64,000 bases of DNA. Origin: Chiloscyllium plagiosum (Eukaryota). A program made the position numbers and the translations under genes. This document shows positions 5,909 to 64,000 of the stretch, piece after piece. Within the stretch, counting starts at the first letter, position 1. The number at the start of each line of letters is the position of its first letter. The notes under the pieces were generated by a model. It was not told the origin of the DNA and searched no databases. It saw only the letters and a list, made by a program, of their open reading frames with translations. The DNA lies in NCBI RefSeq assembly GCF_004010195.1, contig NC_057752.1, positions 9,806,862 to 9,870,861 of the forward strand. The letters run 5' to 3'.

Positions 5909-5949
5909 ACCAACATAGTTACATCACACCTCAAGCAGCAACATATTTA

Positions 5950-30760: not shown

Positions 30761-32091
30761 TACTTACAAGCCAATTTAGTACACAGCCAAGTTCAGAATG
30801 AACTGCAAAATATTCTTGTGCTGGTGGGCAATTTCGTCCTGAAAACTCAGTATGAGGATTATGAGGTGCAGTTCATCCTCTTTTCTCTAACGGAGTGACT
30901 TGAAAGATCATTAATTGCCTATTGAAATCCAAACAGCTTGTCATTACAGCATACTTAAGCAAAATGAATTCAAGAACAAAAACTGTCTGGGTTTACATAA
31001 TACCACACCCTCTCCAACACAGCAACTAAAAAGCTAAATTTGGCAACAGCCATCTTTGCCAATACACCAAGGACCAAGCACATTATGCAGCACCTATACA
31101 ATGAAATAGATCAGCTTCAAGATCATTGCAAACAACGTTTGAAGGAGTTCACATGGCTGGTGATCTGCAAGACAAATAGATTGAAAAGGACAAAATCATT
31201 TCACAAGCACCACTCAAATTAGTACCATTGCTTCACCAAATTCTCATATGTATCATCAGATTAATGATTTGGGATGTGTTTGATGGTGGTGGTGTAATGG
31301 TAATGTCACTGGACTGGTAATGCACCGAAAACACGAGTTTGAATCCCACCATGGCAAATGACGACATTTCAATTCAATTTTAAAAATCTGGTACTTCGTT
31401 GTAAAAATATCCCATCTGGTTCATTAATACCCTTTAGGGAAAGAAATCTGCCATCGTTACCCAGTATGGCCTGCATTCAACTCCAAACCCACAGCAATAT
31501 GGTTGACTCTTAACTGCCCCCCCACTAGGCATTGAGAGGGGCATATGATGGTAGGTAGGAAAATGCTGTTTTTTAATGCAGAAGATCTGGGGGTGGGGAG
31601 GAGGAGGAGGAGAAGAGAGAGGAGGAGGAGGATTAAAACCAACATTTTCCTCACTACCATCAGTTCTGAGGAAGAGTCACTGGACCCAAAACTTGAACTC
31701 AGATTTCTCTCCACAGATGCTGCCAGACCTGCTGAGATTTTCCAGGGAGGTTATTCTTAAATTACACATAAATCACCATATAAAAGTCAGCATTAAAAAA
31801 GGTGTGGTCAACGTCCTGAGTATCCAACACATAGACCGCGAGTTTAATTTGAACTACATGGATGGAATTTGTAAGGGATAATCGATAAATTTCAACAGTG
31901 GTCCTAATACTGCAGTTGAAAGCGGTTTTACCCATAACAAAAAACATTGACAGACTCCAAAGTTTGCAGAAGCGCAAACCACAGATTTATACCAATCCAT
32001 GTCATCTCTCTTCAAGAGCCCTTTTCAGTACTCAAATTTACACAAGGAAAAGACACACCACTCTAAATGAATTTAACTATTTCAAGCCACA

Positions 32092-32491: not shown

Positions 32492-32935
32492 CTATAAAGA
32501 AATTAAGAAGTTATTTCCATTTCCTACATTTGTCTCCCTTTAAAACAGGGCCACTACCATTCCCAACCCCATGAAGAGAAATTGCAAGGTGAAAATATAC
32601 CCATCTGCATGATAACGTTTGCAACAGCATATGACTGCATTCTTAAATTTAAAATACACAAGATTTCTGGACATTTGTAGGTCAACAAACTGTCCATAGG
32701 CGCTCGATCCATGAATGCTGCCTGACCCGCTGCGATCGCCAACATTTTTTTCAGTGCCGATCCCAGCATCGGCAGTAATGTGCTCCTACCCATTTCTAGG
32801 CAGTCCCTGGATTGCGAACAGTTCTATCCTTCAATCCATTTGCAAGTTGGAACACATGCAGTAAGATGTAAAGGAGCCACTTGAACATACGGGAAGTATT
32901 TGCATGTCATATCTTTAAAATTACACCCGTACATG

Positions 32936-33186
32936 ATTAGATTAGATGACTTACAGTGTGGAAACAGGTCCTTCGGCCCAACAAGTCCACACCGACCCGC
33001 CGAAGCGCAACCCACCCAGACCCATTACCATTACCCTACACCTAACACTACGGGCAATTTAGCATGGCCAATTCACCTAACCTGCACGTTTTTGGACTGT
33101 GGGAGGAAACACACACAGACATGGGGAGAATGTGCAAACTCCACACAGTCAGTCGCCTGAGGCGGGAATTGAACCCGGGTCTCTGC
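32936..33186 (-). mobile_element. HE1-type SINE
   Basis: Reverse complement of the 5587-5908 type. Confidence 0.85.
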
Positions 33187-33261
33187 ATGGGACTGTATTT
33201 GCTTTAACTGATACTCAAATCCAGATTTAACGCAAATAGAAGACTCAAATTTACGTTTGAG

Positions 33262-33590
33262 GGACGGCATGATGGCAGAGTGGTTAGCACTGCTGCCTGA
33301 CAGCGCCAGGGATACAGGTTCAATTCCAGCCGAGGGTGACCGTGTGCATAGCTTCCATGTTCTTCTCATGTCTGTGTGGGTTTTCATCATTTTTCCAGTT
33401 TTCTCCCACAGTCCAACGATGTGCAGGTTAGGCAGACTGGCCATGCTAAATTGCCCATAGTGTCCAAGGATGCAAGCTAAATGGATTAGCCAGGGGAAAT
33501 GAAGGGATATGGATGGCATAGGAGTCGAGGTAGGATGCTCTTTAGAGTTGATGCAAACTCTCTTTCCACATTGCCGGAGTTCTATGACTT
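33262..33590 (+). mobile_element. HE1-related SINE (older subfamily)
   Basis: A/B boxes and HE1 core, with a different 3' tail. Confidence 0.8.
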
Positions 33591-40071: not shown

Positions 40072-41169
40072 CTTTGAAATGAAGGAAAAAAAATTACTTT
40101 GTAGCCACATTATGAAGAAAGACCCCTCTCAAGACAAACTCCACTGAAAGCATACCCATTTCTATTAATCATACAGCACAAAGATAGCTCAGTTGCTGTA
40201 GTTGGTGCATTTGTTCATACAGCATACAAACCAGGCTTGACTCAGGCTGAGGTGGCACCTCATTTAAAGCGGCAAGAAGAAAGAACACAAAAATTCCCAT
40301 CCCTTGATATCTTCTAGTACCAGAAAACGCGCAGCAACAGGGTGACATTGCTGCTCTTGCTACCAATCAAAACATATGCAGCATAATTCTCCCCATGCAA
40401 GCAGTTACAATAGAGTTTCACAAAAATGCAAAACCCACTTATTGTTTGGGTCTTAAAGTGTCAACACAGCTAACTATAGTTTTTACATGGTGCTCAGTCA
40501 ATGCTCTAAATGTTGACAAATAAAAAAGGTGTTTGTAAGAACCAGCAATTGAGGAAGCTTTCCTGTTTTTGAGAGGACTTGCAAACAGAAAACTAAGCTA
40601 GTCTCAAGGAAGGATGGCTCTTTCTTCAATGCTCAAAAATTTACAAAAATATCATTCCTTCCGTTTCTGAAAATCTAATCAAAATTTTGGAGTGTGATCA
40701 ATTTCGTGGACAGAGATTCAGACCGAAGATTCAATAAACAGATGAGAGCGAGCTTGGAGACTTAACTATATTGCAGTTCTGCGCGCGACTTGTGCTCAAA
40801 ATTCTTCTAAGTCACAATTTATTGACATCCAAATCTAAGATGCGTTTAGGCACAAAGGCAGAGGAAGCTCCAAGCTACAAAGACTTGCCAGCTGAGTACA
40901 GCCAATACTGATGACACCCTTCGCACACCACATAACTTTGATAGTTTTATTCCACTCACAAAAGAAAACTTGCACAATGGTCTCAAACAACTTTCAACCT
41001 TTATTTATTCATGAAAATACAAAATAATTTTACAAAGTTGGCATTAGTGCAGAGGTGCATTTAACTACTTCAAACCCTTCCCACAAAAGTGATTCAGCAT
41101 TTAAATACCACCACGTTGCAATTCTTTTTCAAAATACGCAGACCTTTCAGTTACGGCAGCAATATGACA

Positions 41170-41512
41170 TGGTGACACAGTGGTTAGCACTGCTGCCACA
41201 CAGTGTCAGGGTCCTGGGTTCAATTTCAGCATCGGACGACTGTCCGTGTGGAGTTTGCACATTCTCCCCGTGTCTATGTACGTTTCCTCCAGGAGCTCCG
41301 GTTTCCTCCCACAATCCAAAGATATGCAGGTCAGGTGGATTAGCCATGCTAAATTGCCTATATATAGTGTCCAGGCATGTGCAGGCAAGGTGGGATAGCC
41401 ATGGGACATGGACAGTTACAGAGATGGAGTGGGTCTGGGTGGGATGGTTTTTGGAAGGTCGGTGTGGACTCAATGGGCCGAATGGCCTGCTTCTACACTG
41501 TAGGGATTCTAT
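41170..41512 (+). mobile_element. HE1-related SINE
   Basis: HE1 head and core with a gattctatga tail. Confidence 0.85.
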
Positions 41513-41559
41513 GATGACAAGAAAGCAAATAACTGGAGCCAAGTACACAAGAGTGTGAC

Positions 41560-42979: not shown

Positions 42980-44295
42980 CTACAAAATGTCATATATTTA
43001 ATACAGCACTTCGTACATTTTCTACGTTTGTGGCACTTTAGTGACTTTCAAAGAAATTGTGGTACTCGTCTTGAAAGTGAGGAACATCACTTTATCGTAG
43101 TTACCAAACCACGTTTATCAGGCAGCCATGCTAAGGTGAAGAAAAAGTGTGAACTCGTGCATTAAAGCTTTCACCCTGTACAAGAATTTTATTACAAAGG
43201 TGCAACATTAACATTTTGATATTTTTCTACAAATGCCTTAAGCAACAAACCTCAGAACCCAAATGATAACTGTAAAAGAAATAGACCTTTGCAGCATTAC
43301 AGAAACGTTTTACCTTAAATTTGTTGTTGACAAGGGAGAAAGACAGATCTGGATATTACAATGCTCGGTACTGGTTAAGCTTTCACACCATGCAATATAA
43401 GCAATTTAAAACAAAGGTTAGCGTGAATGTTCTTGGTACCAGTCAACACTCCAACTTATACAGGTGCTGTAAATTCTCCATATTTGTACCTGCAATGCTC
43501 ATCCTGTGCACAGAAAATAGGCAAACTTACAAAACAATCTGGATTTAAAAATAAAAGATTACTCCAAAGTTTGCCTCAAGCTTTGGGTATGAAAGATGCT
43601 TACTAATCATTAGATTTTAAAGTACAAGAACCACAATGTACTCCAAATATTCACAGGTTGAGGGAGGCAGGCAAGTTTTAGCATGTGAGACAAGACGTTA
43701 ACACAGATTAGATTAGTGTACTAAGTGTCTATTAACATATTAAAACCAGTGCATTCAAGTGTTAAATCCCACTTGTAAAACAAAACAGCAAATAAACAAA
43801 AGTGGACTCCACGTTTGCATTAGTATGCAAGCTCTAAACACCTAGTGGACAGTTGAAATTTGTACATTATGTAATCAACCTGTACCAAATGGGACAGCAA
43901 TTCCTCAATGAAAATTGATTTCAAACAACAGATGTGATTGATCAATTCAAAGAGGACATGCAACATTCAGTAGTAACAACTTATCTTTCTTCCTTCCACC
44001 ATTTTACAAGATGTTAATGCTAATCATTAAGAAAATATGGACTACACACTTTACATAAAGTACAGATTTCATACCGCATTACCTTCATTTGTACAAGGAC
44101 AGGCTAACTTTAAGTTACCCCATACACACTGGAGGACAGAAGACAAACATCCCCACAAAAATACTCCTCCAGAACAGAGCACCGTACTTAAAAGTTAGCT
44201 GTCCACAAGATGTGAACTTTTATAGGACAAACCTTTACTTCCCAGCTCAAATAGGCAGGACACTACGACATGCACACCTCAACCAAACTAAATAC

Positions 44296-47200
44296 CCTCA
44301 TTATTCTGCTTCACCACAGGCTCCTTTCCAGTTGAAGCAGTCTTGGGAATTGCCTTCTCAATAACAGATGGGGGAGGACCTTCACAGAGGGGAGTCTCGT
44401 CGATGGCAGAAATCAATGGTGGCATCTCATCATCATCAATTTGAGCAGCTGAAGATGATCCAGGTGATGGGGTAGAGTGTTGAACAGAGGCAGATGGAAG
44501 AGTGAAAGATGATGGAAAATCAGTGACAGGTGTTGTAGATTCTGACAAAGAAAGTTCAGTGGACAAAGGTGTTTCATGAAGGGAATGATCAGGAGCAGGC
44601 AAGGGAGGCTGAAGCTGTGCATTAACAGAAGGATCAACAGACAGAAGCAAGTCAGTGCACTGAGCAACTTGGTCAGATGAGGTTAACTGAACGACAAGGG
44701 GTTGTAACTCTGAATTAGACAGGTCAGGAGATTGAAGCAGTTTAAAAGGCGAGACTACAGTCAGTGCCTGATCAAAAGCTGGCATAGGTAGTTTATCAGC
44801 AGAATGTGTTTTGAGGGACACAGAAAAACCATCAATTACAGGGAGAGAGGACAGAGGAGGCTCAGTGGTTGCACTGACAACTGAAGATGGCTCAGTAATG
44901 CATGTAGACATTGCACCTTGAACCTCCGTTGCAAGAGGGGTATCTAAAGGATTGGCCAATAATGTATCTATTGCAACTTCCAGAGAATTAAATGACACCG
45001 ACAGCTCAGTTGTATCAGTGGAGGAAACTGAAGGGACATCTGCTGAAAGTAGCTCACCAGTGGCATGGGAAGCAATGAGATTGGCAGACAACTGTGCAGT
45101 ATCCGTAACATCTGTCACAGTTTGAGCTGAAGACTGTCTAGAGGAAATAACAGTATCAATAGGCAAAGTCAGGGTGGCAGAATTGGAGACAGGTGACAGC
45201 AGACCAGCAGATGACAGCAAATGACTGGCAGAGTCAGTAGATAGTGGCTGGTCAGCAGCTGCATCGGTGTTAGTGGGCAACAGCAACTGATCAGCAGACT
45301 CTAGCAACTGACCAATAGCATCAGTGTCAGTGGGTGGCAAATGACTGGCAACATCAGTTGGCAATGGTGACTGATTGAGAGCATTGAGACATGGAAAATG
45401 ACCACTAACACAGGCAGCATCAGCAGATATTGGCAACTGATTGGCAGTATCAGTGGGCAATGGTGGCTGGCCAGCAGAACTAGTGGGCAACAGTGGCTGG
45501 CGAGCAGCATCGGTGTCGGGGGGTAACTGCAACTGACTGGCAACATCAGCTGACAATGGTGACCGATTGAATTCATCAACATGAGATGTCAACTGATCAG
45601 TAACACTAGCAGGATCAGTGGATGATGGCAACTGATCAACATCAGTATCAGTTGACTGAGCAATAATGTCAGTGGGCAACGATGGTTGGCTAGTAGCACA
45701 GGTGGACAACAATGGCTGGCTAGCAGCATCGCTGTCGGTAGGTGACTGCAAATGACTAGCAACGTCAGTTGACAATGATGATTGACTGAATTCATCAACA
45801 TGAGATGTCAACTGACCAGTAACGCTGGCAGGATCAGTGGATGATGGCAACTGATCAACATCAGCATCAGTTGACTGAGCAATAATGTCAATGGGCAACG
45901 ATGGTTGGCTAGTAGCACAGGTGGACAACAATGGCTGGCGACCAGCATCGCTGTCGGTGGGTGACTGCAAATGACTAACAACGTCAGTTGACAATGATGA
46001 TTGACTGAATTCATCAACATGAGATGTCAACTGACCAGTAACGCTGGCAGGATCAGTGGATGATGGTAAGTGATCAACATCAGCATCAGTTGACTGATCA
46101 ACACCATCAGCGGGCAACGGTGGTTGGCTAGCAGCATCAGTGTCAGTGGGGGACTGCAACTGACTGGCAACATCAGTGGATGATGGCAACTGATCAACAT
46201 CAATATCAGTTGACTGATCAACACCATCAGCGGGCAACGGTGGTTGGCCAGCAGCATTGGTGGGCAACAGTGGCTGGCTAGCAGCATCGCTGTCGGTGGG
46301 TGACTGCAAATGACTGGCAACGTCAGTTGACAATGATGATTGACTGAATTCATCAACATGAGATGTCAACTGACCAGTAACGCTGGCAGGATCAGTGGAT
46401 GATGGTAAGTGACCAACATCAGCATCAGTTGACTGATCAATACCATCAGCGGGCAATGGTGGTTGGCTAGCAGCATCAGTGTCAGTGGGTGACTGCAAAT
46501 GACTGGCAACATCAGTGGATGATGGCAACTGATCAACATCAGTATCAGTTGATTGATCAATGTCAGTGGGCAATGGTGGTTGGCAAGAAGCATTGGTGGG
46601 CAACAGTGGCTGGCTAGCAGCATCGCTGTCAGTGGGTAACTGCAACTGACTGGCAACATCAGTTGACAATGATGATTGACTGAATTCATCAACATGAGAT
46701 GTCAACTGACCAGTAACGCTGGCAGGATCAGTGGATGATGGCAACTGATCAACATCAGCATCAGCATCAGTTGACTGAGCAATAATGTCAGTGGACAACG
46801 ATGGTTGGCTAGTAGCACAGGTGGACAACAATGGCTGGCTAGCAGCATCGCTGTCGGTGGGTGATTGCAAATGACTAACAACGTCAGTTGACGATGATGA
46901 TTGACTGAATTCATCAACATGAGATGTCAACTGACCAGTAACGCTGGTAGGATCAGTAGATGATGGCAACTGATCAACATCAGCATCAGTTGACTGATCA
47001 ATACCATCAGCGGGCAACAGTGGTTGGCTAGCAGCATCGCTGTCAGTGGGTAACTGCAACTGACTGGCAACGTCAGTTGACAATAGTGACTGATGAAATT
47101 CATCAACAAGAAATGTCAACTGACCAGTAACACTAGCAGGATCAGTGGATGATGGCAACTGATCAACATCAGTATCAGTTGACTGATCAATACCATCAGC

Positions 47201-49557
47201 GGGCAACGGTGGTTGGCTAGCAGCATCAGTGTCAGTGGGTGACTGCAAATGACTGGCAACATCAGTGGATGATGGCAACTGATCAACATCAATATCAGTT
47301 GACTGATCAACACCATCAGCGGGCAACGGAGATTGGTCAGCAGCATTGGTGGGCAACAGTGGCTGGCTAGCAGCATCGGTGTCGGTGGGTGACTGCAAAT
47401 GACTGGCAACATCAGTTGACAATGATGATTGACTGAATTCATCAACATGAGATGTCAACTGACCAGTAACGCTGGCAGGATCAATGGATGATGGTAAGTG
47501 ATCAACATCAGCATCAGTTGACTGATCAATACCATCAGCGGGCAACGGTGGTTGGCTAGCAGCATCAGTGTCAGTGGGTGACTGCAAATGACTGGCAGGA
47601 TCAGTGGATGATGGCAACTGATCAACATCAATATCAGTTGACTGATCAACACCATCAGCGGGCAACGGAGATTGGTCAGCAGCATTGGTGGGCAACAGTG
47701 GCTGGCTAGCAGCATCGGTGTCGGTGGGTGACTGCAAATGACTGGCAACGTCAGTGGATGATGGCAACTGATCAACATCAGTATCAGTTGATTGATCAAT
47801 GTCAGTGGGCAATGGTGGTTGGCAAGTAGCATTGGTGGGCAACAGTGGCTGGCTAGCAGCATCGCTGTCAGTGGGTAACTGCAACTGACTGGCAACATCA
47901 GTTGACAATGATGATTGACTGAATTCATCAACATGAGATGTCAACTGACCAGTAACGCTGGCAGGATCAGTGGATGATGGCAACTGATCAACATCAATAT
48001 CAGTTGACTGATCAACAACATCAGCGGGCAACGGAGATTGGTCAGCAGCATTGGTGGGCAACAGTGGCTGGCTAACAGCATCGGTGTCGGTGGGTGACTG
48101 CAAATGACTGGCAACATCAGTGGATGATGGCAACTGATCAACATCAGTGTCAGTTGATTGATCAATGTCAGTGGGCAATGGTGGTTGGCAAGTAGCATTG
48201 GTGGGCAACAGTGGCTGGCTAGCAGCATCGCTGTCAGTGGGTAACTGCAACTGACTGGCAATGTCAGTTGACAATGGTGACTGATTGAATTCATCAACAA
48301 GAGATGTCAACTGACCAGTAACACTAGCAGGATCAGTGGATGATGGCAACTGATCTTCAGTATCAATAGGAGGTGACTGATCAATACAGTCAGTGGGCAA
48401 CGGTGGTTGGCCAGTAGCGTTGGTGGGCAACAGGGACTCTTCACCACCATCAGCAGGTGATGATAACTGACTGGCAGTTGATGGTGATTGAACTAACTCA
48501 TCAACAAGAGACGACAACCCACCAGCAATACTGACAATGTCAGCAACTGACTGCTGCAACTGACTGGCCGCAGTATCAGTGGGAGATGACAATTGATCAA
48601 GAATGCCAATGGTTGATGGTGGCTGGTCAGTAATACCAGTGGATGCTGGCAAATGAGCAGTCATAGCAGCATCAGGGGGTGAAGGCATTCCAACAGTATG
48701 ATCAGGCAAGCACAGCCTATCTAATGTAGCAATACCATCGTTGAGTAAAGATGCAGCTGCAGCAGTTTCAGCCATTTCATCAGCCAAAAGCTCGATAGCT
48801 ATGCCAGAAACAGTGGGGGCAATAACACTGTCACATGGAAACTGTCCAGAGTTGGTAGTAACGGAGTCAGCAGATAAAGACAGTCCATCAGGGGCAACAT
48901 TAGTATTCTTCAGTGAGTCAGGCAAAACAGCAGTTATTTCCAGATCAGTCAAATGTTGAGTTGGAGTGCTAGTGGGCAAGGACAACTGATCAGTGGTGGG
49001 GCCATCAACTGCATCAGTAGGTAAAGGTACACTAGTTACAGCAGAACAGGCTGGCAAAGGAATATCATTGGCAACAGTAACCTGGTCAGATTCAGACAGT
49101 CTAAAATCAGAGCCTACTTCAGTGTTCAGGGGATTAGATACAGTCAACCCAGACAAGGCAACCGAGTTAGTGGGCAAAGTCAACTGATCAACAGTGGCAA
49201 CTGCAACTAGGTCAGTAGATGCATGTAACTCATCAACAGCATCAGTACGTTCAGCAGGTAACAGTGGTTGCTCAGTGGGGAGGCCAGCAGTAAGTGAAGG
49301 CACCTCACTAGAAATTATAGAAATAGGAGAAGATAGAGACAGCTCTAAAGGTGGTTGGACAAGAGACACAGAATCAGACAGTAGGTATGAAGAATCATTG
49401 GTGGTGGTTTGGTGGGATGGAAGCTGGAGATCAACGCCATGCAAGTCAGTAGCAGCTGAAAGCTCCATCTTATTGGCACTGCTGGATTCATATTCAGCCT
49501 GTCTGTACTCACTGGCTGAAGAAACTGATTCATGCTCAGAACAGGTTTCAATGGTAG
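44296..49557 (-). CDS. NACA: skNAC-type giant alternative exon of NACA (5262 nt, 1754 codons)
   Basis: Uninterrupted ORF; acceptor caacag|CT at 49557 and donor GAGG|gtattt at 44296, both phase 1. Same position as the mammalian muscle-specific exon; ends ..DDDEMPPLI..EPVVKQNNEG like skNAC. Confidence 0.9.
45480..48430 (-). repeat. Coding modular tandem repeat inside the giant exon
   Basis: VDEF anchor recurs 10 times with spacings 219, 219, 339, 336, 225, 189, 339, 486 and 366 nt, all multiples of 3. Confidence 0.95.
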
Positions 49558-51848
49558 CTGTTGAAGATAACCAAAAAATCATGAATAAAAGTATAGAGCA
49601 GTGTTGTCATTAGGATTTAGGTGTTCATAGAAAATATAATCAACTCCAAAAAAAGTTATTAAATTCACACCACGGTAACAGGTAACTGGATCCATGTTGT
49701 AACTTATATTCCATACAAGCCTACATCCACTCATTGGCATATTCTCTTCCTTTCCCTCTTGTGCTTATTTAAAACAAGTCAATGTTATTTGCCCCAAGCA
49801 TCCTGTGGTAGAAAGTTTCTTCTAAAATCTCTACTGAAGTCATCAATGATGACCTAGTATTTACAGGCTTTGGTCTCTCCATTCCCCATTTTGTCACATC
49901 TACCCTTTAAAGATCTGAAATCAGATCAACCTTTAGTTCTTTTCAAAAAGCTTGCTGGGTTTTTCCTGATATGTATACAGTATCATTAATTCTGGTACTA
50001 GAGTTCACATTTTCTTTTGTGAATATACCCAGTTCCTAATACTCAAGTCAAACATGTGTTTTAATGATTCGACAGTGAAATTTTGCAGCGTTAACCTCTG
50101 TTAGAGATGATCCCCAGTGGTTTTATTTACTTTTTAAAATAGTCTTATTAACCAGTGTTATTGCTATGTATTTGCATCCTGAGTATTCTCCACCACCATT
50201 TAGATCATTACCTAAGCATTTCATGTTCTTTACTTATGCAACCAAAATGCAAGATCTTGAACTACAACTACACTAGTTTGCCAATTACATTTACACCCAT
50301 TCTGCAAGTTTAAGATCTTCATGTACTTTGTCACATTCTTCATTGATATGGACTATACCCCAATTTTGTGTGCTGCATTTGAAACTGCACTTGTTGATTT
50401 TGTCAATATGCCTTCTCTCTTCCACTGTGCTACCCCCAATAATTTCTGACTTGAAGCTGCCATCACTCAAACAATAGGGAAATGTAGAGGATAGCCCATT
50501 CAAATGAAATGAATCTCAATTTTTGCTTTAGGAAAATGCTCCAGGCCTAACCAGTCACTGTGGTGATAGTAATAACTTGATGTGACTAATTGAGGAAATC
50601 TCATTAAATAAAGTGCTGGATTTAGACAAAACAAATCTTAAGTGCATTGGAAACAATTTGTTAAATAAGCCTATTGACAACACAGTCTTCAAGAAAGAGT
50701 TACAAAAATTGAAAAGACAAGATAGAAAACAAACATTCTGAATTCTCATGTCCACATCAAGTGTAAAATAAGCTTTAGATGTGTCACATTATAAGCAAGT
50801 GATCAACCACCTGACCTTAATAATTTTGCATTTTTTGATGGGATATGGATTTCAAAGCAGTTAATTGGACTCCTTTATGGATTAGCATGCAAGGAAGAGA
50901 TGGTGTCAATACCTATTCATTACTTTTAGGCTTTTAACTCACTGTGCTCCTAAGTGACACTCCTACACTTTCAATAGTATTGAGCAGCATCTCAAATATA
51001 AATAAGCTAGATTTAAAAAATACTTTTAGAACAAAGTCACCTCATTGGCATTTACAATATATGGCATTAGTTACTTTGCCAGGAACATTTCTGTTTTGTC
51101 CATGGAATATCATCTTAGCCATGCAGTGAAGTACAAAAGGCCTTTATCACTTCCAGGACAGAGTTGGGCATGGGGTGGGGTGTTGGGAAACCTCTTGAAC
51201 AAGATCCCAGAAGAACAACAACAACTTCAGAACCAGAATTATCACAAGCCAGTATTCTTTGAGAAGAAATTATTAAAAATAGCCGTAACTACATATAATA
51301 ATTCAACCATGCAGTTACAGCTAGCATAAGGGTCAAATTTAAATGGTTTCCAAATTATTTTTTGTAGCAATGCCAATGCTCAGGAAATTGAACTCTTTAA
51401 AAACAAAGATATTGGTTTCAAGAATTACCAGATTAAAAACATGATACGTACAGTAAACTTACTCAAATTTAGCAAAAATAGATCTCCCAAGCCAAACATC
51501 AGATAAAACACTATTACTGCACTGGTACAAGTTTAGTTCCCCATAGGAATCACCAGAGTTCAACAATTCAGGTTAGGCTGTTTTATGCCATGTTTTGCAT
51601 TGACTGAATCAAATGGTCAAATCCATTTCACTTTAGGATCCACATAGCTAGTTGTCACAAGAAACGATAATCCTAGTCTGGAGTCTAGAGGCAAAAAGAC
51701 TGTAAAACCTAAGTTACCACCCACTTTAAATGGAGTGGTTAGAGTAGTTGAGAATACACAAGTGCACAAGAACAAACAAGAAAGTTGTTAGCGGAACTGC
51801 AAGTTTCAGATCACTGTTAGTTTAAGGTGTCATCTATTGTCAGTCTAC

Positions 51849-51947
51849 CTGCAGTTTGAACAGACTTCTCAGGAGAAACGGGGGATGCAGGTGCTTGGAC
51901 TGCACCAGGCACAGCAGGAGCTTCTGAGGCAGGAGCACCGGCCCCAG
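51849..51947 (-). CDS. NACA: Putative NACA cassette exon, 99 nt (AGAGAPASEAPAVPGAVQAPASPVSPEKSVQTA)
   Basis: ctttctag|CT...GCAG|gtagac; symmetric phase 1, stop-free, GC-rich within an AT-rich intron. Confidence 0.75.
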
Positions 51948-52559
51948 CTAGAAAGTTGAGTGATAACATGAGTTACAGACAAACATTAAAAGCAAGCTTA
52001 CAGTCTAGATTAAACCCAGAAAATTTTACACACAATCATTGAGAAATACTGTAGTAAGCCAGAAAAAGAAACAAACCAAGTTAACATTTGCTCACACCAT
52101 TTTTGATCATTCATAACATTTGACTGGGTTTACCAATCCACATTACACCTGTCAAAACAAATTTAACAACACATTGTTCAAAGCCTTTGTACAAAGTTAA
52201 AAAAATAAAAATAATATACTGTCTCTGATCAGATCCTACTTCAAAATAAGAGTGTCAGCAAGGCAAAGCAAAACAAATGGTTTCATTTCACAAACCATTA
52301 AAAAGAGCAACAGAAATATTATACTATTAATTAAAATAAAGGAATTTGATAACATAATGAAGTGTCCAGGAACCAGCTTGGAAAATCTACATCTACATTG
52401 ATTAGCAAACCAAAATGGTTTCAGTCAAGAATTTTACCTCAGATTTACCAGACAAAAAATAGGTTGTTCAGCCCAACTGGGGCAGTGACTTGCTCCACAC
52501 CAGCCTTCACCCTCCCCTTTTCGTTCAACATATCCCTCAAATTACATTCTCTTTTGTAC

Positions 52560-52879
52560 TGTAAGGTTCCCCTTAAATGCATCTATGTTATTTGCCTCAA
52601 CGACTCCTAGAGGTAGCAAGTTCCACATTCTCACAACTGTGTTTTTCCATAAATCCACTAAAGAATTAATGATCATTTCATATTTATGCCTCTAGTTTAG
52701 GATTCCCCAAAAGTTATATATAATCCTAAACTAGAATCCTAAACTAGAGGCATAAATATGAAATGATCATTAATTCTTTAGTGGATTTATGGAAAAACAC
52801 AGTTGTGAGAATGTGGAACTTGCTACCTCTAGGAGTCGTTGAGGCAAACAACATAGATGCATTTAAGGGGAACCTTACA
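52560..52879. repeat. Near-perfect inverted duplication (~145-bp arms) next to (TA)n
   Basis: 52560-52704 vs 52735-52879, one mismatch seen; (TA)n at about 52879-52899; host sequence is an old CR1 fragment. Confidence 0.92.
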
Positions 52880-54779
52880 TATATATATATATATATATAT
52901 CCTATCAAAACTGTTAGAATTTAAACTCCTAACAAAGCCACTCCTTACCTTTCTATGCTAGGGAGAGTCCCAGCGTGTTCAGTCTTGATCTTAAGTCTGT
53001 TAACACCTTAAAATTTTCCTTTTGTGTAGCAGCTCACGAGCACTGAATCAATTAAGTTTGTTATAGTAAACTATTTACAACATTGGTGGCATCTTAGGAA
53101 GAGAATAAGTTAAATTTCTACTCAGTAATATTGGTTTATCTTCTGACTTCTGCAAAAAAAAAAGAATGCTGCATAGATTTCCTACTTGAATTATAAGAGG
53201 TTCAAGCTTTCTTTAAAAAAAAAGATACAAGCCAATCACCAAGACTGGATGAATCTTTGGTCTCAGTAATTTTAAAGAAAGGCATTCACACAGCCAGAAT
53301 TTTTAAAGACCATCCACGATACACAATTTAGTCAAGATGCACTGCAAAACAAAATGCAAGCATTGATTATTTTTTGGGCCCAATACATAATTTGCCTCTA
53401 AGCTTAAAAAGCATAGACAGTGGCACAGGTTACAACTTGGCATTGGTTCAACATGGCAGCTTACCAAAAAGAACCAAAAACAATAAACCTACAAATATCA
53501 AAATTGCTAGAGAATGCTGAAAATCTGAAGTACCACAGAAACATCCCACAAGAACTCAAAGTATTAACGAATGGTTAACCAGACAATTTATGGATGCATT
53601 TAGAGTCAGAAGTGTCTACTTTCTCTTGACAGAAGTCTAAGTGAGAAAGGTTCCTTATTCAGGTCTGGTTTTGCACTTTTATCGAAAGAAACAAGCCAGC
53701 CAAAGCACAGAAGCATGACTGGAGATTAAAACACCCAGAGCAAAATACTTTCTGGATTAGCAGGAGTTAGTAACCTTTAAAAGTAACATTTTTTAATCCC
53801 ACAAATGCAATTATGATAGAAGGCCACTTAGCCCCAAGAGCCAATGAAACAATGGCAGAAATCAGCCATAATTTCTATAAGGCCACTTTTGCCCCATATT
53901 ACTAAATACCTTCGGTTAACAGAAATCTTAAGTTTTAACAGGGGATTTAACATGCTATTTACAGAACAATTCCAAATTTACACCATACTTTGTGAGAAAT
54001 GATTCCTAATTTCAGTTCATAATTCAGTTAGCCAAGGATGTTACTTCAGGAGGTCTCGCACTAGCACTTCACTCGTCATTCAAGCCAACTTCATCGGTCA
54101 ATCTTCACACAAGCTAAGGTGTCACCCTCAGCCAAAGTCACCTCACAAATCTGCTTTAAATATTTCATGTTCAAAGGTTTCTGTTCCCAACTAACAAGAC
54201 ATTTCACCTGCATAGGAACAGCCACCAAGGGTGAAACACAAACTAGTCAGGCAAATAAAAAAATTTAATGACAATCCCCAACTCGAGTAACATGTCTTGC
54301 TTGCTGTGACTTCCTCCAAAACCAACACCTAGCACTTGAGAAAAGCAAAGAGTCACCCCAAGGGATTTACATATAAAATAGAACTGTGCAACTGGACAGT
54401 CAAAATATAAAGTTATGATTCTCAGACCACTAATTTACCTTGATTGTTTAATTTTATTCAATGTCATAAACAATGAACATTGAAAATAAAAACTCAAATC
54501 AGGACAAGATTTGATAATCAATTTGCACTCTGTTCATCATCCCTTCTCTATACCCTTAATTCCAAATGATCCATGAAAGGGAAAATAGATGCAGCCTTTC
54601 AGGATTCAGTCCCCCATTGAAGTAACAAATTCAGCCATGATTCAAGAACAGTTCAAGAAATACGTTGAAAGAAATGTTCATGTACCTACAGCAGTGTGGG
54701 GCAATTTCAAACACAGCTTTCTGTGGCCCTTTCTGCTCTCCTGAAGGGGCACACTTACTGGTTACATAGCAGCTCTAGA

Positions 54780-55570
54780 CATTCAGAATTCCAGCTCAGG
54801 TCTGCACTGAGGGAATGCTCCAGTGAAGCTACCGTTCAAATTTAACTCAAACATTAAGACCCAATAGGTGCTCGAGAGATGCAGGTGAATAATTTCACAG
54901 AACAATGCCAAAGGACCATCAGGCACCAAAATAATATAACCAGTTATAGTGATGATCATTTCAACTTCACTATAGATAAATGCTTAACGCAAAGTGACTG
55001 CTGGATTTGTAATATTTTCCTTTCAAAAAAAAACATTGCAGGATCATAAGGTAGCATTATTGCAAACTTTTCATTGTTGTCATCTTGTCTGCTTTGCACA
55101 AGTCGATTGTCATATTTGCCTGCTCAGTGATATTTGTACGCAATGTGCTTTACAGCAGCTCATGATATAAGGCACCACACACACTTTAAGCCTTGCATGT
55201 GTAATTTTGCGCAATGTAGCTGCTGCATTTGCCTACATAAGCAGTACTTCAAAAGCATTCTTACAAATTGCCCTCAAGATATGCTAAAGTGCTATATGGC
55301 GGGATGTTCACACAAGCTCAGTGAAGTGCATTTTATTTCGCGCAAATTGGCCCTGCATTTGCCCAAATGTGGATCACAGCACTTCAAATGTAGTTTTCAG
55401 CATGTATGGGACTCCAGGCCACCATGATAGGGAAATTCAGTAATAATGTGAGTCCATTGTTTATTTTGCGCAAACTGGCTGCTGCATTTTCTATATTGAC
55501 AGGGCTACTTCACAGCATTGTGTATATAATGCTTTAGGTGTGTCCTTGCTGTTATAAATGCGTGGTCATT
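54780..55570 (+). repeat. Decayed DeuSINE followed by tandem copies of its 3' core
   Basis: gcgcaaa.tggctgctgcattt-like core at about 54987, 55096, 55209, 55340 and 55468. Confidence 0.6.
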
Positions 55571-55890
55571 TAACTTCTGCTCTCACCTGCTGAGTTTAAA
55601 TCAGTGATATGTTTGGTGTAATAAAAACAAAGTCATCAGTAGCAGGCACCATAAATTTTACACTTAGAGGAAACTTGTGGCTTTTATACATGTTAGTTTA
55701 CAATTTCCATCACATCCTTTTATTGTAGTACCTTCTACATTACTCTGTAAAAGCAGGTGTATTCAAATGCAGAGTTATTTTCAAGGGATCATGGAAAATA
55801 ATTATCGTGGTTAGAAACTAAACAAAAAACCTGGCTATTAATGGCAGTTATGTTGACAAAGCTACCACCTTACTACTATCGACAACGCAC

Positions 55891-56067
55891 CTGAAAGCTC
55901 CTGAACAGCTTGAGGCAGTGTATTCTCAGTGATGGCCCCAGTTTGGGAAGCTTCACGTGCCAGTCCAGAAATGGCAGATTCTGTTGAGTCAGTACCTGCA
56001 GCCAATTCGCTTGAAGCAGTGCTTTCTCCCCCAGAGGCAGAAATGCTGACATCACTGTATTCTTCTG
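55891..56067 (-). CDS. NACA: Putative NACA cassette exon, 177 nt (AEEYSDVSISASGGESTASSELAAGTDSTESAISGLAREASQTGAITENTLPQAVQELS)
   Basis: cctttacag|CA...TCAG|gtgcgt; symmetric phase 1, stop-free, S/T/E/A-rich like the giant exon. Confidence 0.72.
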
Positions 56068-56404
56068 CTGTAAAGGATTTGGGACAGTACTACAAATGGA
56101 CAATATAATACTGACATTGCCCAAGTTCGCAAATTACCCTTGGGTTCGAACGCCCTCTTTCCTCTTCACCCCACTACTCCCAAAAGAAAAGTAGCCTTCA
56201 CACCAGGTGACCACATGCACTAATAATGTGCTCCTGTTAACATAGTGAGGACAGTAAAGTGACCAGCATCCCATTAGGTGCTTAGTAAATATTTACTAGT
56301 CAGTTGCGCTTAAGCTGTGAAAAAACCAAGGGGAAACTCAAGTACCATATAGCCTTGTATCAAGATCAGAAGTGCATATAATATCAAAAGATGTTTACAC
56401 TTAC

Positions 56405-56870
56405 ATGGAGTTATACACCACAGAAACAGACCCTTCGGCCCAACCAGTCCACGCCAAACATAATCCCAAACTAAACTAGTCCAACCTGCCTGCTCCTGGC
56501 CAATATGCCTCTAAATCTTTCCTATTCGTATACTTATCTAAATGTTTTTCAATGTTGTAACTGTGCCCATATACACCACTTCCTCAGCAAGTTCATTCCA
56601 TACATGAACCACCCTTTGGAAAAGAAAAATTGTTCCTTACATTTTTTTTAAAATCTCTCTCCTCTCACCTTAAAAATATACCCCTTTAGTTAGGCAAAAG
56701 ACACCTATCATGAACCCTACCTGTACCCCTCATGACTTTATAAACCTCCATAAAAGGTCACCTCTCATTCACCTATGCCCCAGTGAAAAGTCCCAGCCTT
56801 TCTTTATAACTCAAGCCTTCCATGCCTGGCAAGATGCTGGTAAATCTCTTCTAAACCCTCTCTAACTTGT
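56405..56870 (-). mobile_element. CR1 LINE 3' fragment
   Basis: Inverted CR1 tail (gaaacagacccttcggccc) plus ORF2 end (ataaacctc..aaggtcacctctc). Confidence 0.8.
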
Positions 56871-58527
56871 ATTTTTCTGGCTGTGGAATATCGTCAATTT
56901 AAACTTTAGTGTGCTACAAAGCTCCTAACATGCGCTAGCCCAAAATCCTTAATCGACGTAGTATTCAATCATTTCACAACAAACAACAACTTGACAACTT
57001 TGGCAGGCAGCTCATGGTTGCACAACAGTGACACTGAGCTTTAGAAACATATCCTCCTATAACCTGACACTAAATCAAACTGTCACTTACAAACAAGCAA
57101 CTGATTTAAAATTATCTATATTGAAAATCCAAATTTTCATTGTACTGAACCTTTCTTTTAAGAGCAAAGCCTGCAACACTATCAGATTGTTCTAAAATCA
57201 AGGACAAGTGGTCATCCTAATGATTTAACATCCACCGTTTATTTCAGTGCAAAGCACTTTCAAAGCTACATCAAGACTGTGCCTACTGTACATTATAACC
57301 TCTTTAATGTATGCTTCATACACTGTGCTCAAGCCTAAACAGAATGCAATGGCTGCTATTTTGTAACAATCGTGTGGAGAATCGCATCTTTGTGCTTAAA
57401 ATGTTTGTGCAAACACTTAATGCTGCGGAGCAAAATGCATAAAACTGCATGAGCCTCAATTTCAAGTGTTTTTATATTGCAACCACCACCCTGAAGTGGC
57501 AGTACACCTTGGAAATCTGAAGAATTTACAAAGCCAACACATGTATAAAAGCAAAATACTGTGAATACTGGAAATCTGAAATAAACTGAAAATGCTGAAG
57601 AAAATGAAACGCAAGCCTGTTTCCACAACACAGGTACCTCTTTCTGCAAGGAAAGAACTAACTTTGTAAGGGGGGAAAAAAAAAGACCATGTGCATAACC
57701 AAAACTTAAGCCACGATGAGTGTTCCTTCAGAAGTTCAACTTGAAAACGTTTGTGAAGATGACCAGTTTAGGCTAAGGATACCAACTTAATAACTATAAA
57801 GATACACCCAGAAACAATTGGCACCATCTACATTTTCTCCTTGCCTATTCAATTTTCCACAAAAGTAGAAGTCATAAATCAGCAAAGAATTGACAGATTG
57901 CCACTGACATTCAATTCAAAGTAGCACTGCAGTACAAAATGGTTGCGACACTCACCTTTCCCTCAGCAAGTGGCCTAATAGGCCACAAGTTTCAATGTAC
58001 CCTGGCAAAAGCCACTTATTTAAAAAGCCGTAGATGCAGACATCTTGAAATCTTCCAATCATCAGCACCATTTGACCTTGATGGTTGGATGCCCAGAGAA
58101 ACCTTCCCTTATCAATCTTTGTGCTTTCCAAAGTTATGTTAAGAAGCTCTACATTGAGGTATAATACCAATCTTACTGTACACTGACAGACATTTTGTGC
58201 AAGCATGCAGAAATAGAAGGTGGAGGAGAATACAAACAGCACCTGGAAATGGACCATTAATGAAAAACAAAAAAAAAGTGCGAACCATGAAACCTTAACC
58301 GTGGAGTTGGAGGGCAATTCGCTGGGTACTTGAAGCCACAGGTCAATAGAACAGTTACACAAGTATTAGTATGACTAAAAGATGACCTACAATTAATATC
58401 CCAAGCCTTGGTCATTACTTAATGCAATCCCAATGAATAAACCAAAAATAAACTGGCCCAGCAGTGTAAACAAAACCCACAAAACCACTAATAAAAATCC
58501 CTTGTGCAAATTAGCATGTATACAAAC

Positions 58528-58597
58528 CTGTTTCAGCTTGAGGCTGCTGCATTTCTTGCTCCGTGGCAGGAACGGTTTCTGTGGCTTCACCAGGCAT
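58528..58597 (-). CDS. NACA: NACA first coding exon ([24 protein letters not shown])
   Basis: ag|GA ATG at 58597; 70 coding nt; CAG|gtttgt donor, phase 1. Confidence 0.97.
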
Positions 58598-60414
58598 TCC
58601 TAGAAAAAATACATACAGTTAGCAGAAATTCATTAATCATAATTAAGCACACCCATGAACAGAATTAAGTAGCAATGTTGCCAGAATTGTCTGGTTGAAC
58701 GGAAGATGACAACCTTTCAAACAATTTTCTTACAGCAAGTTTGTTCAAAAGTTCAACTTTCATACAGAAGCTGTATTGTTCAAAATGTGCAGCTATTTAC
58801 TGTAAAATCAGATTCACCAGACCCATTTCACTGACAGTCAGTGCTCAAAGACATTGTGGCATATTATAGTAAAATTCAAAAATGTATCATGCTCAGCCAA
58901 GCCGAACTTAAAACTGTGGATGAATCATACCAGGCCAGGCCCAACTTTGGTATTTCAGCCCTTTGTTTAGATTTTGGCTAAGAAATTATAATCACATCAA
59001 GAGACAAGACATAGAACTGGCAAACCCAGGAGGCCCAGGTTCAAGTCCCACCTGCTCTAGAGGTGCGTGCATAACATCTCTGAACAGATTAGAACATCTC
59101 TGTAACTTGTGATTTTGTGAAGGCTAAATGAGTAAGGAACATGCTAAAGATGCTGGAAGCATAAACTAAGCATACAGATTATTGGAAAACACTCAGTTGG
59201 TCAGTCAGCAGCTGTGGAATTAGAAACAGTCAACATTCCAGATCTGCTGAATGTTTTCCAGCATTTTCTGTTTTAATACCACAGCACAATGCTGTCTGCT
59301 TCAATCAGCTCAGATCACTTAGCACCAAACGCACAAAGGAAAATCAATGTGTGAAGGAAGTGACAATGTACAGAATACAATGATCAAGAACAGCAATTGT
59401 ATATTTTACTGTTTTTGAAGTTGCAGGAACATTCAGCAGGCATTATTGGATGAGTGAAGTTCAAACATTTGATAAAACTTCAATTAGACAACTAAGGAAC
59501 AAAGTTCTCACATTATCAATGCACCATTCACACATGGAAACATACATAATTCAGCTAAAGACAACTTGTCCCACTAGCAAAACGGAAATTTTAAACATTT
59601 AATGACTTTGGCTCTTTAACCGAGTTCAACTGCTATATACCATATCTTAAGCGTTTGATCACATAGGTTTGAATATTTTCTTAAAGCAGAGTTTTAAGAT
59701 GATAGCATGTAGTGATTTATTAATGCTTAGTGCAATCATAGCATTGGGGAAGGCATTCTTGGCATTTGAGAGAATAGTTTGCAGAAGTTACATAAAAAAA
59801 GAAACCCATAAGTAATATGTACCTTGGAAGGCAATCGTCAGTCACAAATAACCTGGGAAAGTCACACTGAACATCAAGTATAAACGTGAGTTTTTTTTTA
59901 ATATGAACACAAACCATTACAAAAAAACACATTTCAAAGAACGGGACAAAATATAGCAACCAACAAAAAAAAACTTTAAAGATGACTTGCAGTTATATAA
60001 ACGGCTTCCTGCAAACTGGAAACCCCACACAACCTAAAGGTACGGTCGAAACAACTTTCCGTGGCCTACCTGAACATAACTTAAAAAAATTACAATTAAA
60101 CGAAAACGGATAGCTAGCGAAACTGGCTACACGGCCACACAAAGCACATTCGGGCTATGCTCGCGACTGCTGGGGCTCTTTTCCACCCTCTCCCCTCCAA
60201 TAATCAACCGGTGGGACACCACGAGATTGTTGCTGCCACCCGCTCCCTCAGAGCTCCGCACATTTTTGTTCAACATTACGTTAATACAACTTGTACTGAT
60301 CAATTTTCACGACATCTTAAGTATAAAGTGCTCCTTTCCCTCATCAGGGCAATTTTGCACTCATCACCAATAGTTTAACGATCGGATGGAAGTGGATTTT
60401 GTACAGACACTTAC

Positions 60415-60453
60415 TGCTTCAGTTCGTCAAATCCAAGATGGCTGGAGAAAGAG
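60415..60453 (-). other. NACA: NACA non-coding exon 1 with 5' TOP-like start
   Basis: Minus strand ctctttctcc-agccatcttgg...GCA|gtaagt; pyrimidine start and YY1-like CCATCTT; TSS approximate. Confidence 0.8.
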
Positions 60454-60600
60454 ACTGAACTTCTTTCACTTAGATATTAAAAAGATTGCACTTGTGTTTC
60501 CGGGTCATTTGCTCACCCAGGAGTCCCGCCACTACTGTTTGCTGATTGGGCAAGAATGTCTATTTCCGGTTGATTCGTTGTTGTTTCCCCTGGAATGTGA
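60454..60600 (-). promoter_or_regulatory. NACA: NACA promoter
   Basis: ETS-like ttccgg (about 60498 and 60564), GC box cccgcc (about 60525), CCAAT attgg (about 60545); CpG-enriched about 60000-60600. Confidence 0.75.
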
Positions 60601-61699
60601 GGTTTTTAGATTTCTGCAATGTTTATATACCTGTATGACGGATCGATTTGTATAGAGGTGGTATTCTGGATCACTGAAGAGCACAGCAGTTCAGTGTCTG
60701 CTTGCTGTGTCAAAAGTTCGCACTTGCATCTGTTTTGGGTTCGAATCCCGGTGGTGTTATACACTTCTGGATGAGGTGGGACTTGAACCTGGCCTAAAGG
60801 TAGCGACATTTTCGCTACCACAAAAGCCCTTTTGCTTGTCTTTTTGTATTTTTTTGAAAATACATTACTTAGATGTGCAGCTGAGGATTCCTATATCACA
60901 TCAGAATGGGAACTTCTATTAGACAGTCACAGATACGGGAAAGTTCCCAGTTCAAATAATTGTAACATTGAAGGCAGGATTGATGTTAGAATAGCTTTTT
61001 GTAAGGAAAGAAAATAAACAGTCTGCTGCCCTGGCTAAGTTCAGGTAGTTTGGCAAATACTGAACATAAAAACTTTTAATCTTCTTCACGATGGCTCGGT
61101 ACCATTTTGCACAACAACTTTAGCCTCTGAACGACCATACAAGTCAGTTCAAATGTTTAGTATTAAGCTCTTCAGGCTATAAAATCAGAGATTTAAATGC
61201 TGAATTCCTTCTTATTCTGGACTGTTCTTACTCCAGATAACTTTTTTATAGCAGTTGTTAACAGAAATTTGGCTACACTTTATAAGTATATTTGAACTTA
61301 TGATTATGGCTATATTTGCTACAGGCCTACACAGCTACTATTGTGCACATGAATGTGGCATTTTCCATCAAATTGCAGCAAGAACCAGCAATGACAGATT
61401 TGTATAAATTCCCAGTCAGCACTATAGATGGGCAAACACAATGTGTGAAAATCTGCATTGTCATCATTAGGAATCAAATGTATCAAAGGGTTATTGTAGT
61501 CAGGAATGTTTGGATCCCAAGATCAGTTTTCTTAATTGCAATATGTAAAAGGAAGAGGATGAGATTGAAGTTTAGTGCTTGGGATACATTGGCTAATGGT
61601 AGCATTTTGCTGTTGGGCTGGGGGTGGGGAGTGATTAGAAATGGCATCAACTTAAGCTTCGTGTGACATTGTTTTTCTTCTAGCACATCCAGGTTGAAC

Positions 61700-62830
61700 C
61701 AATGCCAAGTAATACTGCAGATGTTGGAGATCTGAAATAAACACAGAAAATGCTGGACAAGTTAGCAGGTCTGGCAGCATCCGTTCAGGCAGATACAAAT
61801 TTAGTGTTTCAAGTTTGATATGAGTCTTCTTTGGAACTGAAGAAGCCAATTAAACGATTTTTTTAATGCTGTTGATAGAGGGGTGAAGGAGCAAGTGGAT
61901 CAGATGGTAAATGTCCAAAGCAAAAGGTAAAGGGAGTGCTGCTGGTAGTTGAGGAGGATATAGATGCTAAATAGTTATTAATTGTAGGTGTGAATAGTAG
62001 AACATAAGTTGTTTTTGCTAAGAGTAATTGCATGCAAACAGGATATGGGATGGGGTGCAATCAAGATGGAAGATGGTGTTCATACTCTGAACTTGTTGCA
62101 GTCAATGTCCTGAAGGCTGTAAAGTGCCTAAGCAGAAAAGTAAGTGCTGTTTCTGCAGCTTGTGTTGGACTTTGCTTGAGCACTACAGCAGCCCTAGGAC
62201 AACAATGTTAGCTTAAGAGTAAGATGATTTATTGAAATAATAAGCAATTGGAAGATTGGGGTCATTGTTATGTAAAAGCAGAGGTGTTCTGCAAAGCGGT
62301 CACCAAGATTGCATTTGGACTTGCCAATGTCGAGCAGACTGTAGCGAATACAGTAGACTCAACTGAAACAAGTAGGAGTAAACTGCTGCTTCACCTGGAA
62401 GAAGTGTTTGGGGCATTGGACGGTGATGAGCAAGGAGGAAAAAAGGCAAGTGTTGTGATTACGTGGAAGGTACCATGAGTTGGGGAATAGTGACAGAGGA
62501 GTGGACTAACGGGTCAAGCAGGCAATGGTGTCTCTGGATTGCTTACTGCAGAAGGGAAGGGAAGATATGTTTGATGGTGGTGGAAAATGTTGGTAGGATG
62601 GTAAGTGAGGACCCTATCATTTCCTATGGGATGAGGGGAAGGAGAGAGGGCAGAAGTGCAGGAAATGAGTTGGAACAGCTGAGGGCCCTGTCAGCCACAT
62701 TGCTGGTGGTGGTTGGGGGAATGGATGTCCTCGGTTGAGAAAAAGGAAGATGCCAGAAGCGCCTCTGAGGAGTGTCACAGCATTGGGAACATATATGACA
62801 GGTGGAAAAACTAAGAGAAATGGAGTCCTT
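61700..62830 (-). mobile_element. Decayed Neptune-type Penelope-like element
   Basis: 3' end aatactgcagatgttggagatctgaaat..; same architecture as 27810-29000. Confidence 0.65.
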
Positions 62831-62849
62831 GCAGGAAACTTGTTTTTAT

Positions 62850-63910: not shown

Positions 63911-64000
63911 AGTTTTATCCATTTCTTATTTTTGTAACTTCTTATCATTTCTGCTTAATTTCTCTGAGTTCTGTATTCTCTATCCCTTCCTGTGTTTGTC

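Follow-up and report, generated by a model that had tools for sequence, protein, structure and literature searches.

A giant acidic exon of shark NACA with a conserved skNAC-type tail and an interior that can be spliced out in frame

The NACA gene of the shark Chiloscyllium plagiosum lies on the reverse (-) strand of the 64,000-nucleotide (nt) stretch analyzed here (RefSeq contig NC_057752.1, positions 9,806,862 to 9,870,861; hereafter the window, numbered from its first letter) and contains a giant exon at 44296..49557, which we refer to as exon C. This exon is the positional and elasmobranch orthologue of skNAC exon 3 of NACA. It consists of a short tail that is shared with skNAC proteins and a long, strongly acidic interior, which can be removed in frame and which keeps its composition while its sequence drifts. 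We slightly favor the view that ribosome-bound muscle NAC combines a conserved docking tail of the SMYD1 type with an optional, extended anionic tether, the length of which would be tuned by splicing.

Position, frame, and composition of exon C

Exon C comprises 5262 nt (1754 codons), a multiple of three, and lies between exons 2 and 4 of NACA with phase 1 at either end. Its edges are exact, with an acceptor ending in CAACAG before 49557 and the donor GTATTT after 44296. In the available passages of PMC10340688, the skNAC insert of alpha-NAC follows residue 23 and precedes the final 192 residues, and exon C is a multi-kilobase open exon that sits in frame between these same two parts. Its coding frame is free of stops, the other five frames carry 36-256 of them, and among the 7 stop-to-stop frames of at least 150 amino acids (aa) in the window it is the only one above 200 aa. 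The long form is represented in relatives by the RefSeq models P0001-P0005 and P0011-P0018. An initial annotation, made from the sequence alone, had described a strongly acidic skNAC-like NACA exon of 1754 codons with very few Lys and Arg, and both statements are borne out.

Among the 1753 whole codons, Ser (16.2%), Asp (11.8%), Leu (11.3%), Thr (11.0%), Pro (10.4%), Ala (9.4%), and Gln (7.7%) prevail. Asp and Glu (256 residues) far outnumber Lys and Arg (17 residues, 9 and 8, respectively; 1.0%), which results in a net charge of -239, or -0.136 per residue, and a side-chain isoelectric point of ~3.4; each 100-residue block is negative. The Pro-rich composition with basic S/T-P-K repeats that characterizes the mammalian-type insert was not found in exon C, and S/T-P pairs are rarer than expected (33 observed, 49.7 expected).

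No credible Pfam family was found on exon C, and Rfam gave 0 matches. A Pfam match to YPEB_N (exon C residues 933-986, E=7e-9, above the cut-off) was rejected: the family is bacterial, the match covers a single repeat unit, and the orthologue P0001 lacks it. AlphaFold2, run on alignment A1 with a stingray long form as first sequence, returned a mean predicted local distance difference test score of 36; the NAC domain, which served as internal control, was also unfolded, and the run therefore carries no information on disorder. FoldIndex values of the inserts could not be told apart from those of the NAC core.

Exon C is spliced into NACA and its interior can be spliced out

Splice evidence was drawn from 4 of 24 runs (X1, X2, X7, and X19) over positions 48600-64000; X19 contains raw RNA reads, of which ~2% were read, and the other three are contigs guessed to be RNA. 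In X2 and X7 (2 of the 4 runs), exon 2 is joined to a small cassette, exon B, and exon B to position 49557 of exon C, both joints being GT-AG. Exon C is thus spliced into NACA on its 5' side, as the initial annotation had presumed. A skip from exon 2 to exon 4 is seen as loose ends in X1, X2, and X19, the latter with 71 skip reads and zero depth in exon C. X1 and X19 show the skip only, and exon C is included in X2 and X7.

A further splicing event, the in-frame removal of the interior, had been missed in the initial annotation. The 45-nt 5' piece of exon C (49513..49557, -) ends at an internal GTGAGT donor, where a loose end of X7 matches 44416-44448 except for one Asp codon. The X2 and X7 contigs both stop at 49542, 30 letters from donor 49513, as a branch there predicts. 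Together, the loose end and the contig breaks indicate that 5064 nt (44449..49512, -; 1688 codons), or 4971 nt with acceptor 44541, can be excised in frame, which takes out 96% of exon C. An exitron is an internal GT-AG part of a coding exon that is stop-free, has a length divisible by three, and is both retained and spliced. The interior conforms to this description, with the donor GTGAGT, an acceptor after a pyrimidine run, and both forms present in runs and RefSeq models.

Long RefSeq models exist in 10 elasmobranch species. All 23 matches shorter than 883 aa, 12 of which were read in sequence, are elasmobranch mini forms of 299-413 aa from 12 species, in which the interior is removed and the tail is kept. 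Models of mini forms use the alternative acceptors 44541 and 44448 and the optional exon A, so that their inserts measure 99-189 aa.

We additionally observed TGCATG (44269-44274, -) 21 nt past the exon C donor and ACTAAC (51816-51821, -) 27 nt past the exon B donor, which we take to be candidate RBFOX and QKI sites, respectively, of the sort that usually accompanies the inclusion of exons in muscle. A further TGCATG occurs within the exitron, 69 nt from its edge, where it forms part of the codons for a conserved LHG.

The tail is the conserved part

The tail (44296..44448, -; 153 nt) encodes an acidic run, PPLIS (44408-44422), and a Lys (44342-44344), followed by K-x-P-V-V-K-x-N. In alignment A1, which comprises 22 sequences from sharks, rays, a caecilian, a newt, a ray-finned form, a snake, human, and rhinoceros, P-L-I, P, K, and N are invariant within the last ~45 residues. 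The tail motif is found in 137 of the 143 NACA isoforms scanned; the six isoforms without it are ray-finned. A tail profile search was weak on its own (best E=0.0024; 3 of 44 targets listed). BLASTP of exon C against 44 inserts gave strong matches only to 10 elasmobranchs, and the others were no better than E=1.3. The invariant columns and the BLASTP result agree with the earlier claim that only the last ~50 aa resemble skNAC.

In mouse, SMYD1 binds a PXLXP motif (L1952) and methylates K1975, 23 residues further on, according to the accessible part of PMC10340688. The shark tail has the same layout of an acidic run and PPLI, with a P-K 24 residues beyond the Leu, and its Lys at 44342-44344 has a spacing like that of K1975. 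By analogy, it may act as a SMYD1 docking and methylation site.

Composition, not sequence, is kept in the interior

Much of the interior is occupied by a 3-kb tandem array (45450..48433, -), which is built of 40-75 aa units from shared modules, has a net charge of -0.16 per residue, and is lineage-specific. The repeat cores of three genera with different units are each acidic (-0.10, -0.15, and -0.16), and the array is almost absent in stingrays (P0012). Within elasmobranchs, the interior keeps frame and composition, and its sequence identity falls to ~50%. In the non-repeat flanks of the interior (292 aa), all 8 relatives compared, at 49-72% identity, have a net charge of -0.099 to -0.123, 1.0-2.3% Lys plus Arg, and 0.7-1.4% aromatic residues, with the proviso that local alignment may favor well-kept segments.

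Neutral evolution was simulated from the window codons with a simple mutation model in which stops were rejected. At 50% identity, the simulated flanks had a net charge of -0.034 +/- 0.019, 5.4% Lys plus Arg, and 7.8% aromatics, and the most negative of 300 runs reached -0.082. Under the lenient setting of 72% identity, the charge (-0.105) was attained in 3 of 500 runs, the Lys plus Arg content in 4, and the aromatic content in none; 5 of the 500 encountered no stop mutation. The negative charge and the scarcity of aromatics are both retained far more strongly than neutrality predicts. A compositional polymer fits this pattern, unlike a folded domain or a ruler. Of the two roles proposed initially, that of a spacer is plausible, given a composition that persists as the sequence changes.

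Insert charge across vertebrates

Of 714 long proteins found with a NAC core, 120 were listed, and the 107 with a core identity of at least 94% were scored, with 13 rows set aside as divergent, partial, or paralogous. The net charge per residue is -0.05 or lower in 30 of the 107 and -0.10 or lower in 16, namely 13 elasmobranch, one caecilian, and two frog isoforms. All 13 elasmobranch long forms lie between -0.10 and -0.15; the caecilian insert (-0.109 over 2014 aa) falls inside this range, and frogs span -0.07 to -0.10, with two isoforms reaching -0.101. Inserts of mammals are weakly basic (+0.01 to +0.04), and their positive charge sits in the central repeats and beyond (P0075: -0.004 in the first 700 residues, +0.066 in the repeats). 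Group medians, taken from 55 hand-picked inserts, are -0.136 in sharks (n=4), -0.116 in rays and skates (n=6), -0.072 in amphibians (n=7), -0.020 in snakes (n=6), and +0.030 in mammals (n=17); ray-finned fishes have a median of -0.055 (n=15) and range from -0.203 to +0.065. The named proteins scored include no chimaera, coelacanth, lungfish, bird, turtle, crocodile, lizard, or zebrafish.

The contrast with mammals in sequence and net charge, on which the initial annotation had insisted, is real (-0.136 compared to +0.01 to +0.04, with nothing but the tail aligning). Acidity as a shark peculiarity did not survive the comparison, since rays, a caecilian, and frogs are acidic too; the initial annotation had named equally acidic exons in other vertebrates as grounds for rejection, and this applies in part, with the caecilian inside the elasmobranch range and two frog isoforms at -0.101. 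Acidity of the insert is widespread, and its charge is labile. We regard an acidic ancestor as the simpler reading and as probable, with the neutral to basic tail regions of teleosts as a caveat; it is at least as likely that mammals, with their basic S/T-P-K repeats, show the derived condition. A lamprey protein (Petromyzon P0115, 1243 aa), with a NAC core 82% identical and an acidic extension of -0.098, may be of either the NACA or the NACAD type.

A proposed tether with a docking tail and its alternatives

The proposed architecture starts from what was observed of the gene structure, the splicing on the 5' side, the internal splice-out, and the composition and conservation of the exon, and would have two parts. 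The first would be the tail of ~50 residues beside the NAC core, which is conserved in jawed vertebrates and occurs in every muscle-type elasmobranch isoform seen. The second would be the optional interior of 700-1700 residues, kept or removed as an in-frame exitron. Selection on this low-complexity polyanion would act on frame, negative charge, and a scarcity of Lys, Arg, and aromatics rather than on sequence or length. On the ribosome-bound NAC of striated muscle, the interior would most likely form a tether or bristle that is extended and does not stick, and its reach would be set by splicing and repeat expansion and not by a fixed ruler. The muscle specificity, the SMYD1 binding, and the tether role are all presumed in this proposal.

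Several points weigh against it. Translation and disorder of the long form are conclusions that we infer. The RNA nature of X1, X2, and X7 is a guess, none of the runs that contain the exon being registered as RNA, and the 3' joint from 44296 to exon 4 is taken from RefSeq models and not from run reads. Furthermore, 29 of 143 isoforms, all from sharks and skates, have the strict PXLXP motif broken to PPLIS, and no other PXLXP occurs anywhere in exon C. Stingrays, Mobula, sawfish, and Narcine keep PPLIP. Strict PXLXP is likewise missing at the tail site of two human and two monkey sequences, so that a loss of SMYD1 binding cannot be assumed for PPLIS, and such tails may still bind. As for the human sequences P0030, P0031, and P0032, two read LLPLIP and one LPPLIP; strict PXLXP apparently varies within humans.

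The remaining objections concern the interior itself and would equally suit an alternative that we consider unlikely, in which the mini forms are the working products and the interior would be an intron that stays open and bland only to make its occasional retention harmless. In X7, depth drops from 1411 at the joint to 44 in the interior, only about twice that of introns (18-28). Interior substitutions are near neutral: 4 are synonymous among 13 listed X7 differences (19 in all), against ~28-31% expected, and 22 of 60 repeat-allele differences are synonymous, near or slightly above that expectation. None of the three RefSeq models found for Chiloscyllium plagiosum (404, 373, and 345 aa) has the interior, and the protein search gave no long RefSeq protein for this species. 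However, X2 has a depth of 297 where exon B joins exon C and still 109 in the interior, compared to ~3 in the introns on either side, contig depth being a poor measure of expression in both runs. Open long frames are annotated in 10 elasmobranch species, the negative charge and the lack of aromatics are retained far past neutrality, and giant forms also occur in a caecilian, frogs, and mammals, all of which speaks against a tolerated intron.

A second alternative, which strikes us as rather improbable, regards the interior as a multivalent scaffold, in which units resembling Q-x-P-L-P bind a sarcomeric or chaperone partner repeatedly and acidity is secondary. By eye, the differing units of Chiloscyllium, Carcharodon, Scyliorhinus, and Pristis do share a Q-x-PL(P) core, but common ancestry of one unit explains this likeness. 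Stingrays manage nearly without the array, the caecilian repeats lack the core, and, as stated above, Pfam offers no family for the exon.

The other half of the initial proposal, a molecular ruler that spans a fixed distance from sharks to mammals, is very improbable and largely refuted. Its appeal lies in the conserved position and in the similar sizes of exon C (1753 aa) and the mouse insert (1972 aa). Inserts measure 697-1541 aa in the 10 other elasmobranchs, 1392 aa in Chiloscyllium punctatum even counting exon B, 712-2014 aa in amphibians, and 1244-2284 aa in mammals, with rodents at the upper end and a few models in the comparison lacking the N-terminus. By a scaling formula, the coils would measure roughly 13.6 nm for exon C, 6.9 nm for a stingray, and 7.0 nm for mouse, so that charge does not offset length. 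Thus, position is conserved as initially claimed and size is not (697-1753 aa within elasmobranchs, with 96% of exon C excisable), which makes a ruler unlikely. An acidic arm that auto-inhibits NAC-beta was rejected for want of support in the available passages of PMC6527867, where the alpha N-terminus is described as negative and as doing little against huntingtin aggregation.

Possible charge by phosphorylation, and significance

Beyond the tether with a docking tail, we tentatively suggest that the insert is a polyanionic tether throughout the vertebrates, with fixed Asp/Glu charge in sharks, rays, and amphibians and switchable S/T-P phosphorylation in mammals; the 50-residue tail would be the irreducible functional unit, used in mini forms of 300-400 aa. 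The density of S/T-P rises as acidity declines (Spearman 0.84; 55 non-independent inserts from about six lineages); sharks have 1.5 such sites per 100 residues and mammals 7.4. In the mouse and monkey inserts, S/T-P-K/R shows a three- to five-fold enrichment. When -2 is assigned to each S/T-P site, which assumes full occupancy, group medians become -0.12 to -0.17. In the accessible part of PMC12216477, NACA of human muscle gains more phosphosites upon aerobic exercise than any other protein. Teleosts fit this reading poorly.

skNAC is required for sarcomere integrity and adult heart function, and the source passages available assign no role to the bulk of the giant insert. In the comparison, the insert falls into two parts, a tail that is conserved and an interior that can be replaced, and natural test constructs are available in the 314-aa mini form, the acidic giant form, and the basic giant form. 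Since the mouse skNAC coding sequence exceeds the capacity of adeno-associated virus 9 (bioRxiv 10.1101/2025.10.23.684272, passages available), the question of rescue by the tail alone is practically useful. Exon C is a real feature; skNAC and the long and short RefSeq models of elasmobranchs are already known, and the surprise is limited because the gene, the isoform type, and both kinds of shark model stand in automated annotation of relatives. Our literature search, outside which most subscription papers fell, found no comparative study of insert charge or tail-only isoforms.

The NACA gene around exon C

Upstream of exon C, the non-coding exon 1 (60414..60453, -) is joined to exon 2 by the joint 58598-60414 in X2 and X19. 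The coding part of exon 2 (58528..58597, -), with joints in the runs, specifies the first 23 residues and ends in phase 1. In X19, 41 raw reads stop at 60453 with an adapter-like tail, and a transcript starting at ~60453 (-) would open with a pyrimidine run, like a 5' terminal oligopyrimidine mRNA. Downstream, core exons 4-9 (42979-42894, 40071-39994, 39432-39286, 38152-38024, 32491-32369, and 32195-32181, -) encode the NAC and UBA domains, and Pfam NAC and UBA_HYPK were found on P0153 and P0001. The window encodes the Chiloscyllium plagiosum RefSeq NACA models, of which exact 10-mers cover 340 of 345, 368 of 373, and 399 of 404 residues, respectively; the unmatched residues are one at a junction and the four of the last exon. 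Because these models are NACA and the core is 94-100% identical to NACA matches, identity as the paralogue NACAD was rejected.

Two small cassette exons precede exon C; like the tandem array and the internal splice sites, they had been left out of the initial annotation. Exon A (55891..56067, -; 177 nt, phase 1-1) is optional and acidic and is contained in the RefSeq models P0150 and P0153 encoded by the window; none of the 15 listed of 110 run joints involves it. Exon B (51849..51947, -; 99 nt, phase 1-1) has the joints 51947-58528 and 49557-51849 in X2 and X7 and is almost invariant in the alignment of elasmobranchs. Against 44 non-elasmobranch or paralogue inserts, a profile of exon A gave one clear match (E=0.0009) and that of exon B none.

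The exon A motif (V/L)A(S/T/N)EASQTE also occurs in isoforms of a caecilian (P0083), a frog (P0109), and Amia (P0183) and in P0180, with EAVQTE or EGVQTE versions in arowana and eel, and resembles the TQT anchor of LC8 (DYNLL) sites, for which it is a candidate. The end of exon B (51849-51872, -) reads EKSVQTA in most elasmobranchs. Similar sequences are listed for the LC8 binders MAST1, SON, and ZFPM1 in table 2 of PMC6607443, the available part of which also contains SIQT non-binders.

Elsewhere in the window, a dispersed repeat of ~300 nt, with copies 71-85% identical (5587-5909, 8398-8715, 24190-24500, 30511-30768, 32935-33501, and 41168-41514), is probably a shark short interspersed element; some copies yield spurious frames of 150-200 aa.

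Comparison with known systems

Mammalian skNAC (mouse, 2187 aa, P0046) shares with the shark exon the insertion site, an exon of 5-6 kb, a low complexity rich in Ser, Thr, Pro, and Ala, and a homologous tail. It differs in net charge (+0.01 to +0.04, shark -0.136) and Pro content (18-23%, shark 10%), whereas the shark has no S/T-P-K repeats, PPLIS in place of PPLIP, two extra cassette exons, and a splice-out of 96%. Human skNAC-2 (P0032, 925 aa, net 0.00) is likewise a short isoform without the central repeats. Passages of bioRxiv 10.1101/2025.10.23.684272 describe mouse skNAC as cytoplasmic, with ribosomes near sarcomeres, and skNAC of mouse and zebrafish as ribosome-associated and needed for sarcomere assembly.

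Long amphibian NACA proteins (Geotrypetes P0083, Mixophyes P0106/P0107/P0109, and newts) are also giant and acidic (-0.06 to -0.11) and carry the tail motif, EASQT stands near the N-terminus of P0083 and P0109, and a short form is annotated (Microcaecilia, 376 aa). They differ from the shark in using Glu instead of Asp, in an interior that cannot be aligned, and in an intact PXLXP. Among ray-finned NACA (Amia, eel, rockfish, Polymixia, and arowana), six isoforms are, like that of the shark, strongly acidic (-0.146 to -0.203) but, unlike it, lack the tail motif. Several teleosts have their acidic block at the N-terminus, and the region that carries the tail is neutral to basic.

NACAD has a giant acidic extension before the NAC domain as well (-0.12 to -0.15 in named or similar matches), and all 68 long unnamed representatives with a divergent core of the NACAD type scored negative (median -0.113). 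It is a separate gene with a core identity of ~75% or less, lower Pro, and no skNAC tail. Long, phosphorylated, disordered extensions have already been published for germline NAC paralogues of Drosophila (PMC9249742, passages available).

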